From Eledone cirrhosa (lineage: Eukaryota): 64,000 bases of DNA. This document shows positions 19,835 through 61,034 of this stretch, piece after piece. Numbering within the stretch: the first letter of the stretch is position 1; every line of letters begins with the position of its first letter. Below the pieces are notes generated by a model. It searched no databases, was not told the DNA's origin, and saw nothing but the letters and a program-made list of their open reading frames with translations. The DNA lies in NCBI GenBank assembly GCA_964016885.1, contig OZ024740.1, forward strand, positions 235,972,001-236,036,000, in the 5' to 3' direction. A program made the position numbers and the translations under genes.

Positions 19835-19867
<33 letters not shown>

Positions 19868-20207
19868 GGAGGCACATGGCTTAGTGGTTAGAGCATTGGC
19901 CTTGCAATCGAAAGGTTGTGAGTTCAATTCTCAGACCGGGTGATGTGTTGTTTCCTTGAGCAAGACACTTTATTTCACATTGCTCGAGTTTACTCAGCTG
20001 TAGAAATGAGATGATAGGGACTGGGGTCCCTATCATTCCACTGCAAAGTGGTCGTGGAGGTGCCACGGAAAAAAAGTACCCAGCACTCACTGTAAATGAG
20101 GTTGGTGTTAGGAAGGGCATCCAGCTGTAGAAATCAAGCCAGAATCAGTTCCCGTCCCACCCTTGCAAGCAGGGAAAAGTGGACGTAAAATGAAATGATG
20201 ATGATGA

Positions 20208-32967: not shown

Positions 32968-35900
32968 TCACAGTGAGCACTGGGTGTGTTTTGTTGTGAC
33001 TCCTATACAACCACTTTACAGTGTGGACTGGGTGCTTTTTGTCGTGACTCCTACACAACCACTTAACAGTGTGGACTGGGTGCTTTTTGTCGTGACTCCT
33101 ACACAACCACTTAACAGTGTGGACTGCGTGCTTTTTGTTGTGACTCCTACACAACCACTTAACAGTGTGGAGTGGGTGCTTTTTGTCGTGACTCCTACAC
33201 AACCACTTAACAGTGTGGACTGGGTGCTTTTTGTCATGACTCCTACACAACCACTTAACAGTGTGGACTGGGTTCTTTTTGTTGTGACACCTACACAACC
33301 ACTTAACAGTGTGGACTGGGTGCTTTTTGTTGTGACACCTACATGACCTCTCTACAGTGTGGACTAGGTGCTTTTTGTTGTGACACCTACATGACCTTTC
33401 TACAGGGTGGACTAGGTGCATTTTGTTGTGATACCTACATGACCTTTCTACAGTGTGGACTAGGTGCATTTTGTTGTGATACCTACATGACCTTTCTACA
33501 GTGTGGACTAGGTGCGTTTTGTTGTGACACCTACATGACCTTTCTACAGTGTGGACTGGGTGCTTTTTGTTGTGACACCTACATGACCTTTCTACAGTGT
33601 GGACTAGATGTTTTTTGTTGTGACACCTACATGACCTCTCTACAGTGTGGACTGGGTGCTTTTTGTTGTGACACCTACATGATCTTTCTACAGTGTGGAC
33701 TAGGTGCTTTTTGTTGTGATACCTACATGACTTTTCTACAGTGTGGACTGGGTGCTTTTTGTTGTGACACCTACATGACCTTTCTACAGTGTAGACTAGG
33801 TGCTTTTTGTTGTGACACCTACATGACCTCTCTACAGTGTGGACTGGGTGCTTTTTGTTGTGACACCTACATGATCTTTCTACAGTGTGGACTAGGTGCT
33901 TTTTGTTGTGACACCTACATGACCTTTCAACAGTGTGGACTGGGTGCTTTTTGTTGTGACACCTACATGACCTTTCAACAGTGTGGACTGGGTGCTTTTT
34001 GTTGTGACACCTACATGACCTTTCTACAGTGGGGACTGGGTGCTTTTTGTTGTGACACCTACATGACCTTTCTACAGTGTGGACTGGGTGCTTTTTGTTG
34101 TGACACCTACATGACCTTTCAACAGTGTGGACTGGGTGCTTTTTGTTGTGACACCTACATGACCTTTCAACAGTGTGGACTGGGTGCTTTTTGTTGTGAC
34201 ACCTACATGACCTCTCTACAGTGTGGACTGGGTGCTTTTTGTTGTGACACCTACATGACCTTTCTACAGTGTGGACTAGGTGCTTTTTGTTGTGACACCT
34301 ACATGACCTTTCAACAGTGTGGACTGGGTGCTTTTTGTTGTGACACCTACATGACCTTTCTACAGTGTGGACTAGGTGCTTTTTGTTGTGACACCTACAT
34401 GACCTTTCTACAGTGTGGACTGGGTGCTTTTTGTTGTGACACCTAGATGACCTCTCTACAGTGTGGACTAGGTGCTTTTTGTTGTGACACCTACATGACC
34501 TTTCTACAGTGTGGACTGGGTGCTTTTTGTTGTGACACCTACATGACCTCTCTACAGTGTGGACTAGATGTTTTTTGTTGTGACACCTACATGACCTCTC
34601 TACAGTGTGGACTAGATGTTTTTTGTTGTGACACCTACATGACCTTTCTACAGTGTGGACTGGGTGCTTTTTGTTGTGACACCTACATGACCTCTCTACA
34701 GTGTGGACTGGGTGCTTTTTGTTGTGACACCTACATGACCTTTCTACAGTGTGGACTGGGTGCTTTTTGTTGTGACACCTACATGACCTTTCTACAGTGT
34801 GGACTAGGTGCTTTTTGTTGTGACACCTACATGACCTTTCTACAGTGTGGACTGGGTGCTTTTTGTTGTGACACCTACATGACCTTTCAACAGTGTGGAC
34901 TGGGTGCTTTTTGTTGTGACACCTACATGACCTTTCTACAGTGTGGACTAGGTGCTTTTTGTTGTGACACCTACATGACCTTTCAACAGTGTGGACTGGG
35001 TGCTTTTTGTTGTGACACCTACATGACCTTTCTACAGTGTGGACTAGGTGCTTTTTGTTGTGACACCTACATGACCTTTCTACAGTGTGGACTGGGTGCT
35101 TTTTGTTGTGACACCTAGATGACCTCTCTACAGTGTGGACTAGGTGCTTTTTGTTGTGACACCTACATGACCTTTCTACAGTGTGGACTGGGTGCTTTTT
35201 GTTGTGACACCTACATGACCTCTCTACAGTGTGGACTAGATGTTTTTTGTTGTGACACCTACATGACCTCTCTACAGTGTGGACTAGATGTTTTTTGTTG
35301 TGACACCTACATGACCTTTCTACAGTGTGCACTGGGTGCTTTTTGTTGTGACACCTACATGACCTCTCTACAGTGTGGACTGGGTGCTTTTTGTTGTGAC
35401 ACCTACATGACCTTTCTACAGTGTGGACTGGGTGCTTTTTGTTGTGACACCTACATGACCTTTCTACAGTGTGGACTAGGTGCTTTTTGTTGTGACACCT
35501 ACATGACCTTTCTACAGTGTGGACTGGGTGCTTTTTGTTGTGACACCTACATGACCTTTCAACAGTGTGGACTGGGTGCTTTTTGTTGTGACACCTACAT
35601 GACCTTTCAACAGTGTGGACTGGGTGCTTTTTGTTGTGACACCTACATGACCTTTCTACAGTGTGGACTAGGTGCTTTTTGTTGTGACACCTACATGACC
35701 TTTCTACAGTGTGGACTGGGTGCTTTTTGTTGTGACACCTACATGACCTTTCTACAGTGTGGACTGGGTGCTTTTTGTTGTGACACCTACATGACCTTTC
35801 TACAGTGTGGACTGGGTGCTTTTTGTTGTGACACCTACATGACCTTTCTACAGTGTGGACTAGGTGCTTTTTGTTGTGACACCTACATGACCTTTCAACA

Positions 35901-36415
35901 GTGTGGACTGGGTGCTTTTTGTTGTGACACCTACATGACCTTTCTACAGTGTGGACTAGGTGCTTTTTGTTGTGACACCTACATGACCTTTCTACAGTGT
36001 GGACTGGGTGCTTTTTGTTGTGACACCTACATGACCTCTCTACAGTGTGGACTAGATGTTTTTTGTTGTGACACCTACATGACCTCTCTACAGTGTGGAC
36101 TAGATGTTTTTTGTTGTGACACCTACATGACCTTTCTACAGTGTGGACTGGGTGCTTTTTGTTGTGACACCTACATGACCTTTCTACAGTGTGGACTGGG
36201 TGCTTTTTGTTGTGACACCTACATGACCTTTCTACAGTGTGGACTGGGTGCTTTTTGTTGTGATACCTATATGACTTTTCTACAGTGTGGACTGGGTGCT
36301 TTTTGTTGTGACACCTACATGACCTTTCTACAGGGTTGACTAGGTCCTTTTTGTTGTGACACCTACATGACCTTTCTACAGTGTGGACTGGGAGCGTTTT
36401 GTTGTGATACCTACA
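32968..36415. repeat. 48-bp minisatellite, ~72 copies, expanded inside an RTE 3' UTR (32800-36590, minus)
   Basis: Unit GTGACACCTACATGACCTTTCTACAGTGTGGACT(G/A)GGTGCTTTTTGTT. Left flank is the (CAT)n tail and UTR; right flank is the end of an RTE ORF. Confidence 0.95.
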
Positions 36416-36584: not shown

Positions 36585-36629
<45 letters not shown>

Positions 36630-36633
<4 letters not shown>

Positions 36634-37245
36634 TAGAATTGGTGCTCTGAAATAACGATATATATTTGAATGTATATGTAGTGTATTTTGCAATACACTG
36701 TATGCTTAATTAAAAGCATTTTGGAGACTTTACGCTATTGTTTTAAAGTAGTGACAGTGTCACTTACTTCTATTTTCAGCAAACAAGGGGAGATAAGCTG
36801 ATAAGTACTTGTTGGTACTTATCAAAGCTCAGCACTCCTCCTATTTGCTGAAAATTATGAATGTTGGATTCTTATAGAATTCCAGTAATAATCAGGAACT
36901 GATTATACAGAGCGGTTGCCAGTCCAGCAAAAATTGAAAATTTCAGAGCACCAATTCTAATTTTCAATTTTTGCTGGACCGGCAACCGCTCTGTATAATC
37001 AGTTCCTGATTATTACTGGAATTCTATAAGAATCCAACATTCATAATTTTCAGCAAATAGGAGGAGTCCTGAGCTTTGATAAGTACCAACAAGTACGAAA
37101 CAGAGCCCTGTCAGCTTATCTCCCCGTGTTTGCTGAAAATAGAAGTAAGTGACATTGTCATTACTTTAAAACAATAGCGTAAGGTCTTCAAAATGCTTTT
37201 AATTAAGCATACATAGTATTGCAAAATACACTATATATACATTCA
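36630..37245. mobile_element. (TA)n-flanked palindromic non-coding element (inverted pair of ~300-nt monomers)
   Basis: Arms 36667-36942 and 36959-37245 are imperfect reverse complements; 16-bp spacer. Confidence 0.9.
37071..37117 (+). ncRNA. Type I hammerhead ribozyme, U3-A8 core variant
   Basis: GAGCT-TTGATAA-GTAC-caacaa-GTAC-GAAA-CAG-agcc-CTG-TC-AGCTT; stem I extended by ATTTTCAGCAAA/TTTGCTGAAAAT. Confidence 0.75.
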
Positions 37246-37261
37246 TATATATATATATATA

Positions 37262-50428: not shown

Positions 50429-53162
50429 TGTGAAATGGAACTGAATTTGGAACCACATGATTGTGAAGGGAACTTCTTAAGCACACAGCCATACATGCTC
50501 CCACCACTTGCCCTCTCTAGTTTTATCCCTGACATAATCAACTACAAAAGATATTTTGACTGAACATTAACATCATTGCTGCTTTCAATATTTGTATCGT
50601 TTTTTGTCCAACAGTTGTTTCTCCTTCTTTGTATAGCTCAGTTATCTCTCACAACTTTCTTTTTATTTGTGCCACCTTCTTTCATATTCCTGTTAACAAA
50701 CCTGCTTCCTGATCAATTAGGTGTGAGAACTTCAATTAAACTCATGGCAGCTTACATCGATGTAATTTGTTGAGATCATTACATTAACTCTGTTTTACTG
50801 GAGAGTGAAATGACCAAGTGTTAAAGAAACCATTTTTATAAATTAGTCATTGATTTTTCTTTACTTCACACTCAAATACAAATGGAGAAGGAAGAAAGAT
50901 ATTCTGAACGAAAATAATTAGTTCCATAGCTAATATGAATACAATAAAACCAAGAATTGTAGATGTGATAGAGTTCTGTTTTATTTCCCTGTCAATTTGC
51001 TTATTGCTGGTGTTAGGAAAGTGTCTTATATGTCTTGTCTAGTTCACAATAATATTGTAGTTATTTATTTGCAGGCTAACCCTTCTGGATACGACCTTTG
51101 ATCAAAGACATTCTAACCATGAACATCTCATTCTGTTTTCTTGGAGGTTTTGTAGAACTCTTCAATTGTGTCAGACATTACAACTCTTTAGCATTTACAA
51201 TATGAAGGTGCATGGCTTAGTGGTTAGAGCATTGGGCTTGCAATCGAAAGTTTGTGAGTTCAATTCTCAGACCGGGTGATGTGTTGTTTCCTTGAGCAAG
51301 ACACTTTATTTCACATTGCTCCAGTTTACTCAGCTGTAGAAATGAGATGATAGGACTGGGGTCTCTATCATTCCACTGCAAAGTGGTCGTGGAGGTGCCA
51401 CGGCAAAAAAGCACCCAGCACTCACTGTAAATGAGGTTGGTGTTAGGAAGGGCATCCAGCTGTAGAAATCTAGCCAGAATCAGTTCCCGTATGAGCAAGA
51501 GAAGGTTAGCCGACTGGACACTGCCCACAACAGGACAACCCGTCTAACCCATGCTAGCGTGGAAGAACGGGCGTAAAACGGTGATGATGATGATGATGAT
51601 GAATACTCTATATATACTATTGTATTTTTATGGTAAAATACTTTACCTCACATAATTATCTCACATAATATCAAATCTATGCGATTCTGATGTTATTTAT
51701 TTTGAGAACAATACTTTAACATCAGTATGAGTGACCAGTTACGGCTGGTTTGATCAGAAAGAGGTGAGAGAATTCTGGCTGGATATGGCCGGTTTAAATG
51801 CCAAAGGGTTAAGCAAACCCTTGAAAAAAAGTATTCTATCTATCACCTATAATCAAAAGCATTTTAGCTGAATCAATAGTCCTATGGTATGCAAACAATC
51901 AGCTGAGTAATGAGGCATCATTTACAGATCCACCTGCCCATTTATATGATGTCTATACCTGGTTGAGGACTACACTGCACATTCTAACATGCAGTGAGGA
52001 ATTGTATGCAATGCAGTGTGATAGTCTAGACATGTTGGACTCTCACCACTGTCCACTCTATTCTTTTACATCTGTAGATTCTGGTGTTCATTACAGAAGA
52101 GGTAGGTAAGGTGGAATCAGTCTAAGTGCATGAGTTGCTATTCCTCTGCAGATATTGTTGGTGGTGTACATCCCAGCACAATGATTGGCAGCTGGTGAGG
52201 CCATTTATTCCATAGTTGTTTGGGGTTGTATGTGTTTTTTAAGCTTATCTGGGCTTAATGAGAGAGATATTGCTTTTATAGGATGCTGTAGTAGTGTTTA
52301 GATATAGTTTTTCAGGTAGTAACAAGGACTATGACAGTTGAAGTTTGCTCTGGAAACAAAGTGTGTCTTTCACATGTCAAGGAAGTATTCAAATTTTTGT
52401 ATTTTTGTTTCATTGTGTGGGCCTGTTATGGTGTTTAGTCAGTAGCATGTAGATGTTTGGTGATTCCTGCGACCAAATTCTTGATTGTATTCCTCTAAAA
52501 CTCATGTGAGTAAGGTTGAAAACCCCCATCACCTACCCCGATATGGGCATCTGGGCCATCACACCCTCTTCCCTCCTCTCAGTACATTACTGTGTACAAT
52601 GCATTTCTCTGTGTCTTTGCAGTTTCTTTTTGTGGATAGGAACCTGTGTAAGACTAGCAAAGTCCACAGATATTTTGCTTATATGCTATTATTGCTGTTT
52701 GTTTCTGTTGTTGGCCAAATAGGGTAGCTGTGATTATTCTAAGTCTGTTTGTACATCATTGTGTTTTCTTGAATATATCTTCTTTGTATGTTGTGAATGT
52801 TATAAAGGTGCTGTATGTAACTACTTGAATTTTTTACTCTTGTGGAGGCACATGGCTTAGTGGTTAGAGCATTGGCCTTGCAATCGAAAGGTTGTGAATT
52901 CAATTCTCAGACCGGGTGATGTGTTGTTTTCTTGAGCAAGACACTTTATTTCACATTGCTCCAGTTTACTCAGCTGTAGAAATGAGATGATAGGGACTGG
53001 GGTCCATATTCCACTGTAAAGTGATCATGGAGGTGCCACGGAAAAAAAGCACCCAGCACTCACTGTAAATGAGGCTGGTGTTAGGAAGGGCATCCAGCTG
53101 TAGAAATCAAGCCAGAATCAGTTTCCGTCCTACCCTTGCAAGCAGGGAAAAGCGGATGTAAA

Positions 53163-53195
<33 letters not shown>

Positions 53196-59895: not shown

Positions 59896-61034
59896 CTATT
59901 TATTTATCATGGGAGAAATGAATGGTTCCAGAATTATTAATGTATTACTTTTGTATTAACATTGTTTTATATTATTCTTGTCTTGTAATGTATATTGTAT
60001 ACTGTATTGTATATTGTAATGTATTGTTTTGGTGTTCTACAGCGACAAGTGGAAGTGGAGGGGGTGGGGTGGGGCAGCATGAGGAAGGAGTGTGTTATAA
60101 TTCCAATGGATCGGAAATCCATTCTATTCATTTTCATCTCCTTCACTGTGTAACCATGGGGAAATGGTGGGACTCAGTTTCATGGATTCATGTTGTTATT
60201 GTTATTTGGGAGGTTGTATGGTTATCTCACTTTGTACTGGGTATCATATATTCCTTCAACCATGTTTATGTCTTCTGATAACAATATACACATTCATGCA
60301 TACAGATACCCATACTCACATACATACAAACACATACATGCATATACATCATACATATCTATGTACATATATAGAGTTACACACACACACCTACATATGA
60401 TAAAGTATTCATATAAGATAAACAATACAAAATAGAAAGGGTTTTATATATTTATTTGTTACACACACACACAAACACACTCCTCCCCCACACACAGTCA
60501 CATACATACATACACACATATAAACACACTCACACAGACACAAAAATACTCACTTTATAGCATAAAAATAAAGACTATATACATGTAATCATCATTTTTA
60601 CATCCGCTTTTCCCTGCTTGCAAGGGTGGGACGAGAACTGATTCTGGCTTGATTTCTACAGCTGGATGCCCTTCCTAACACCAACCTCATTTACAGTGAG
60701 TGCTGGGTGCTTTTTTTTTCCGTGGCGCCTACACGTCCACTTTACAGTGTGGGCTGGGTGCTTTTTTGCCGTGGCACCTCGACAACCACTTTGCAGTGGA
60801 ATGATAGGGACTCATTTCTACAGCTGCGTAAACTGGAGCAATGTGAAATAAAGTGTCTTGTTCAAGGAAACAACACATCACCCGGTCTGAGAATTGAACT
60901 CACAACCTTTCGATTGCAAGGCCAATGCTCTAACCACTAAGCCATGTGCCTCCATTATAGTGACATAATGGTGTGTATATGTTGGAGGAAGAAAGATAAA
61001 AATACATACACACATACACACACATATTTTTAAA

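Follow-up and report, generated by a model that had tools for sequence, protein, structure and literature searches.

The locus studied here raises the question of how two copies of a short non-coding repeat came to lie head to head within a (TA)n run, and of whether a sequence that closes on itself points to a circular RNA template. It is located in a 64,000-nt stretch of the Eledone cirrhosa genome, which was analysed at its full length and is called the window below. A reading made from the letters alone (the sequence-only reading) had described a palindromic element with a monomer of ~308 nt, and had explained it by reverse transcription of a circular or concatemeric RNA of retrozyme size followed by a fold-back. 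The locus, two inverted arms in (TA)n, comprises the following features.

36587..36630, no strand: (TA)n microsatellite, the left target (TRF: 22 copies, 100%)
36630..36942, minus strand: left arm, unit positions 20-319 and then 1-24, with a tailed (b) 3' end (locus label L045)
36630..36666, minus strand: tail of the left arm, formed by an AT-rich linker of 13 nt and by the 24 nt with which the next unit begins (sequence match)
36796..36828, minus strand: left hammerhead, no longer intact: an 11-nt deletion has taken out GAAA and helix III, so that a perfect hairpin remains
36940..36942, no strand: head-to-head (5'-5') junction, a 3-nt overlap common to both arms
36940..37260, plus strand: right arm, unit positions 1-315, with an untailed (a) 3' end running into (TA)n
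37046..37139, plus strand: long predicted stem around the hammerhead (fold z -6.27, 0/100 shuffles equally stable)
37073..37115, plus strand: type I hammerhead motif, U3-A8 core variant (Rfam HH9 and compensatory changes)
37261..38302, minus strand: LINE 3' end with an (ATC)n tail, outside the element and abutting the right (TA)n

The two arms are inverted repeats with 92% and 97% complementarity, they carry common sublineage variants, and they are flanked by (TA)22 on the left and by a shorter (TA)n followed by the LINE tail on the right. Followed on the minus strand from 36942, the left arm reaches ...TACATTCA and continues through the 13-nt linker (36666-36654) and the 24 nt into (TA)n. The reverse complement of 36630-36653 equals 36940-36963 at all 24 nt (BLAST against the window, E 1.5e-6), and each orientation of this sequence is present once in the window. 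The palindrome does close on itself, as had been read, and the same junction is found family-wide. The monomer length, instead, had to be corrected: the unit is ~319 nt long, and 308 nt had been obtained because the left arm is without 11 nt of its hammerhead, a deletion private to this locus among 286 loci (PLE loci and overlapping duplicates included). The near-monomer length of the left copy is a coincidence, since arms of 309-329 nt show no excess (12/255, with 13 and 9 in the neighbouring bins), and we rejected it as an exact-monomer signature.

Within the element, the ORF check found only overlapping frames of at most 59 aa and no ORF with RT and GIY-YIG. The neighbouring LINE, putatively of the RTE type, contains a 213-aa frame (37661-38302) and recurs elsewhere in the window. 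The miRNA-like matches in the window (Rfam) were discarded, being the palindrome centre only.

The unit of ~319 nt, non-coding, belongs to a large repeat family. An exact 29-mer from the unit end has at least 3,105 matches in the genome and its reversed control has 0, while the 3.0-Gb genome, searched at the DNA level, yielded 2,814 candidates, 40 of which were scored. Counts were made on two samples: sample A (71 loci) derives from the first 100 of the 3,105 29-mer matches, in order over the first 92 Mb of contig 1, whereas sample B (84 loci), anchored on b ends, was drawn from a tailed-end pattern with 124 matches, of which the first 90 were taken. The sets L001-L060, biased because composed of top BLAST matches and anchored on the hammerhead, were used for divergence, covariation and flank tests only. 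Overlapping duplicate loci, the array loci L154/L121, and sample B loci already in A or equal to the window were left out of the counts, as was L231, a duplicate of L230, although it is still in one junction/tail-to-tail count. Alignments shorter than 40 nt were left out, with a limit of 30 nt for the locus count and one junction count. L230 and L231 (G000:C2:384644900-384967300) are separated by 320 kb and have one arm structure, oriented in opposite ways; they are a segmental inverted duplication or an assembly duplicate.

The ends of the copies were then mapped on the unit. Among 280 arms of at least 40 nt (samples A and B, the latter anchored on b), 116 end 3' at a site a, 139 at a site b and 25 elsewhere; in the unanchored sample A the values are 60, 53 and 12 (n=125 arms). 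Site a is the internal (TA)n of the unit, and site b lies 16-31 nt into the next unit. Conversely, the 255 terminal arms have 146 distinct 5' positions, with a median length of 255 and a maximum of 728. The expectation that start and end points would be scattered around a circle holds for the 5' ends and fails for the 3' ends, which are fixed at two sites in 255/280 arms, so that the copies are not permuted at both ends.

The arms are also paired in a regular way. Head-to-head pairs occur at 112 of the 155 loci, and a tail-to-tail arrangement was seen once. One tailed arm faces one untailed arm in 85/92 pairs (36/39 in sample A alone, p 4e-8), (TA)3 is present within 12 nt after the tailed end in 51/53 cases of sample A, and most head-to-head junctions consist of overlaps or short gaps. 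Palindromes beside (TA)n are hard to assemble, which would suit an assembly artefact, or satellite and palindrome formation at the DNA level. We regard this explanation as scarcely credible, given that over 155 dispersed loci the 3' ends are fixed, the 5' ends vary and the arms have diverged. Furthermore, the head-to-tail junction, which lies inside 175 of the 255 arms, is also found in contigs of the public runs X1 and X2 (these come from one sample, possibly the assembly's own, and contigs cannot show RNA ends).

Continuity with further units is evident in the untailed arms as well, 36/116 of which run into the previous unit. A head-to-tail array of 17-18 units lies at C1:82,390,455-82,395,957 (L154/L181), its units being 3-18% apart, mostly 7-18%. 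Hammerhead variants recur in non-adjacent units of this array, which is a candidate old source locus. The family presents several of the traits by which non-LTR retrozymes are recognised: a short non-coding unit (about 150-450 bp), a type I hammerhead motif, head-to-tail repeats with at least two hammerheads, high copy number, and variable 5' ends in place of LTR-type fixed termini.

The hammerhead has stem I at 37073-75/37113-15, UUGAUAA at 37076-82 where CUGAUGA is usual, stem II at 37083-86/37093-96, GAAA at 37097-100 and stem III at 37101-03/37108-10; cleavage is predicted between 37112 and 37113. The Rfam model HH9 gives 20.9 bits (E 0.021) on this motif, below the gathering score of 52, and no ribozyme was found in the window at the gathering score. 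Across 169 loci, the 3-8 core pair is U3-A8 in 147 and C3-G8 in 14. Stems I-III present 139 double Watson-Crick changes, against 4, 0, 0 and 0 when the partners are slid, counts which refer to related sequences and not to independent events. The monomer fold has a z score of -6.27 against shuffles; in the window copy, the most stable fold is favoured over the hammerhead fold by 3.1 kcal/mol. The covariation argues that the unit carries a predicted self-cutting type I hammerhead with a conserved fold. The C3-G8 sublineage (L062, L076, L144, L159, L197 and 9 more loci) combines the canonical core with a shorter loop 2.

The substitution of U3-A8 for C3-G8 has been published for a hammerhead of Schistosoma Penelope-like elements (PLEs), as reported in the available text of Cervera and de la Pena 2014 (PMC4209133). 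Unlike in those elements, as far as that text describes them, both states segregate here in one family (147 vs 14 in 169 loci), and in the retrozyme instead of the pLTR.

Resident PLEs are abundant in this genome: GIY-YIG matches gave 10,596 candidates, of which 150 were scored and 50 PLE loci were read. Among the resident elements, L161:773-6815 (G000:C1:145870000-145877500) is a near-intact autonomous PLE with direct terminal repeats of ~1.07 kb, 97.8% alike. Its 938-aa frame matches RVT_1 and GIY-YIG and contains a CX4CxxC linker; a CX2-5CxxC linker is associated with Neptune in the accessible parts of Craig et al. 2021 (PMC8557442), and the element is Neptune-like by linker alone. Its terminal repeats bear a minimal U3-A8 hammerhead, and its 3' end, TTCTAAT(AT)n, is like the b end of the unit. 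Other resident PLE families have U3-A8 or canonical C3-G8 motifs. Helix III is real in the retrozyme hammerhead, whereas in the motifs of the resident PLEs it is short and palindromic.

At inverted PLE loci with both ends captured, one tailed and one untailed end were found in 7/7. An autonomous EN+ PLE with matching end behaviour (L161) is present in the same genome, and the repeat family carries the footprint of PLE insertion, namely a tail, an inverted 5'-truncated copy and a microsatellite target. As described in the available text of Craig et al. 2021 and Arkhipova et al. 2013 (PMC3846280), PLE insertions are partial tandems truncated at the 5' side; an inverted copy lies next to them, a tail of 30-40 bp is often present at a single end, and there is a bias towards microsatellites. 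Self-priming was proposed in the latter work. Our family is like EN+ PLEs in each of these traits (5' truncation, partial tandems, inverted 5'-truncated copy, one-end tail of 30-40 bp, microsatellite targets), and also in having a hammerhead near the end and two internal RT start sites. In vitro, according to the accessible text of Frangieh et al. 2024 (PMC11167929), an anole PLE cleaves and extends both strands, with a dimer predicted, and uses two adjacent internal RT start sites whose interval equals the tail, the dominant substrate being uncleaved RNA. Unlike EN+ PLEs, the retrozyme unit is without an ORF, wholly non-coding, and closes on itself; the family is not an autonomous PLE. The pairing of tailed and untailed ends, as in the resident PLEs, together with the start-site interval of the anole element, identifies the closure of the unit as the known Penelope tail of 30-40 bp; closure alone is therefore no proof of a circle.

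Since all structural features are those of PLE ends in the consulted sections of PMC8557442 and PMC3846280, the copies could be pLTR fragments of an autonomous PLE family outside our sample, inserted in the ordinary 5'-truncated way. The sampling (150 of 10,596 candidates scored, 50 loci read) leaves room for such a family. What lies upstream of the unit, however, is more unit and not an ORF, as in the untailed arms and in the 17-18-unit array, and same-strand PLE coding sequence was found upstream at 1 of the 74 free 5' ends (207 loci), broken mid-frame (L253). We consider this origin improbable. Against the terminal repeats of the 50 sampled PLE loci, from families sampled partially, the unit gave no BLAST match at E 1e-3 except for the nested insertion L092.

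Retrozyme and PLE sequences also meet directly. A tailed retrozyme arm is joined head to head with a PLE arm at three loci (L203, L192, L129), involving three different PLE families; at L203, the PLE is truncated in its RT and ends at its untailed site. Two of the 74 free 5' ends (207 loci) have a different repeat joined to them head to head, namely a truncated LINE at L122 and a SINE-like repeat at L051. As the PLE joins involve three families and the LINE and SINE joins have a like geometry, a later insertion with deletion is possible. At L156/L284, L241/L285 and L253/L286, retrozyme ends are joined directly to a mid-frame PLE of the L161 family, without a long (TA)n, and at L156 the RT seems to have switched template, from PLE RNA to retrozyme site a. 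At L129:683-1310 (G000:C1:56078382-56079009), a 166-nt deletion derivative devoid of the hammerhead (unit 227 to 73) is present in four copies in tandem, which have a normal tailed end and lie head to head with the PLE arm; a G/C variant alternates between the copies.

How the palindrome itself arose can be addressed by comparing the arms. Within a locus they are closer than between loci (4.5% vs 10.3%, in 46/46 cases of sample A; in a second comparison 5.7% vs 11.4%, closer in 32/35), which, together with the common sublineage variants, indicates one source for both arms. Gene conversion between inverted arms could inflate this likeness. The same likeness would be produced if a single cDNA folded back and the second arm was copied from the first, and indeed the untailed arm is within reach of the tailed one at 43/85 paired loci, and a few junctions are exact palindromes. 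At 34/85 loci, however, including that of the window, neither arm is contained in the other; moreover, the untailed arm reaches further in 22/52 and the tailed in 26/52, arm lengths are uncorrelated, and the joins between retrozyme and PLE arms need two templates. The fold-back proposed in the sequence-only reading is largely refuted as a general rule, and we judge it slightly more improbable still than a pLTR origin, even if it may account for a subset of loci.

Twin priming of the L1 type yields complementary, non-overlapping arms. It was rejected because the arms here cover common parts of the template and each of them has its end at a terminal site. We infer from the arm structures that priming took place twice, at site a on one target strand and at site b on the other, with the cDNA ends joined via short overlaps.

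Then, we asked what template the two primings would have read. Tandem units within an arm differ at 350/5473 positions and in-register inverted arms at 466/7678 (p 0.93, rho 0.66, 38 arms). Source variants common to both arms recur in the upstream unit in 161/175 cases, with 26% expected (62/67 in sample B alone), against 108/292 variants common to neighbouring units of one long array. These identities favour one monomer RNA read repeatedly, that is, a circle, although of the rare variants (<5%) only 14/23 recur upstream (45/196 in the array). Because the predicted cleavage site is crossed once by 148/255 arms and twice by 22, the template is not as a rule a cleaved linear monomer. Of the retrozyme-size circular or concatemeric template postulated from the letters, the repeated reading of the unit is borne out by the tandem junctions, by the double crossings and by the long array; the circular form is favoured only, and on evidence other than the closure.

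The principal competing template is an RNA multimer in linear form, in part uncleaved, which would come from young homogeneous arrays or from insertions of several units and be used by PLE two-strand priming with no circle. Around the cleavage site the stop rate is approximately doubled on both passes (5.4 vs 2.7-2.9 per 1000 on the first, 15.4 vs 7.1-9.8 on the second), and both arms stop near it together at 7/92 loci (Fisher p 8e-4). These stops fit linear RNAs whose 5' ends were made by the ribozyme, or a pausing of the RT at the stem that encloses it. Coherently with a linear multimer, no arm (0/255) crosses the site three times, a tandem array exists in the genome, and the anole PLE, according to the available text of PMC11167929, works mainly on uncleaved RNA. 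On the other hand, the sole long array sampled has units mostly 7-18% apart, its neighbours have far fewer variants in common than the units of dispersed arms (a comparison made with one long array), and each of many sublineages would need its own homogeneous array, although homogeneous source arrays may lie outside the sample. Overall, we find this alternative rather unlikely, if worth keeping in mind.

The explanation that we prefer, and consider reasonably probable, is that the window locus is an insertion of a non-LTR retrozyme (~319 nt, thousands of copies) produced when PLE RT/GIY-YIG nicked both (TA)n strands and primed two cDNAs on a likely circular monomer RNA. Transcripts would be cut by the hammerhead and ligated into circles, and the RT/GIY-YIG endonuclease of a resident PLE would nick a (TA)n run on its two strands. 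One strand would prime at the internal (UA)n (site a) and the other at site b, ~26-30 nt beyond it, so that the tail is formed. The distance covered by each RT would vary, sometimes exceeding one round, and the two cDNA ends would join by short overlaps into a palindrome; in a minority of events, a linear RNA cut at the ribozyme site may serve as template. Judged on its sequences, the family is likely a new non-LTR retrozyme family mobilised by Penelope.

More tentatively, and with less confidence than we place in the account of the single locus, the copies could be read as fossils of a process of rolling-circle reverse transcription in an animal germ line, in which a PLE dimer primes both (TA)n strands in two fixed registers on one circular ribozyme RNA, for more than one pass, the halves occasionally being made on different RNAs, with retrozyme-PLE chimeras as the outcome. 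If this is true, two-ended priming, and not self-priming, would account for the tandem and inverted structures of Penelope elements generally, and for those with a tail on one side.

The kind of element is already known. Metazoan retrozymes yield circles, according to the available text of Cervera and de la Pena 2020 (PMC7229834), and circle-templated tandem cDNA with PLE mobilisation has already been proposed for non-LTR retrozymes, there and in the accessible parts of Li, Clavereau and Pollet 2026 (bioRxiv 10.64898/2026.07.22.740005). As in the metazoan non-LTR retrozymes of these two sources, the unit is non-coding and within 170-400 nt, with a type I hammerhead, low GC and a strongly self-paired RNA, and it occurs as monomers to multimers, in thousands of copies, together with PLEs. 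Unlike the metazoan retrozymes that they describe, this family consists mostly of dispersed head-to-head pairs in (TA)n that follow a strict tailed/untailed rule, with mostly a U3-A8 core and occasional joins to PLE arms. It also differs from 21 Xenopus cases described in these sources, as no homology to a sampled pLTR was found here among 50 PLE loci.

A further parallel is given by the non-autonomous Chlamys PLEs such as MRC1, which, in the available text of PMC8557442, are likewise PLE passengers with multicopy head-to-tail insertions. Elements of the MRC1 type are described there as without canonical hammerheads and generally like the 3' end of their partner, whereas this unit has a hammerhead and no detected homology to a partner.

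In the open-access literature, supplements aside, we found no report of the pairing rule, of variant sharing between arms and tandem units, or of retrozyme-PLE joins. Both the movement of retrozymes and the tandem, inverted, one-tail insertions of Penelope are treated as open in the consulted sections of PMC7229834, PMC8557442 and the 2026 preprint. Countable predictions (the tailed/untailed rule, non-nested arms, identical tandem units) can be drawn from a 319-nt family whose two-armed copies number in the thousands, and its unit is a minimal RNA substrate for an in vitro PLE assay.

Other repeats were observed in the window. A 48-nt minisatellite at 33017-36415 (70.8 copies, 95% matches) contains a stop-free frame of 1184 aa on the minus strand, which is probably a by-product of the period. 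Its unit resembles part of the 3' end of the adjacent LINE (~37430-37520), and the minisatellite may therefore be an expanded repeat of the LINE 3' end. An inverted repeat at 48686-49337 has 242-nt arms, 100% complementary and 168 nt apart. Dispersed tRNA-like repeats, probably a SINE family, lie at 49397-49456, 51213-51270, ~19853-20205, 52836-53163 and 60596-60961.
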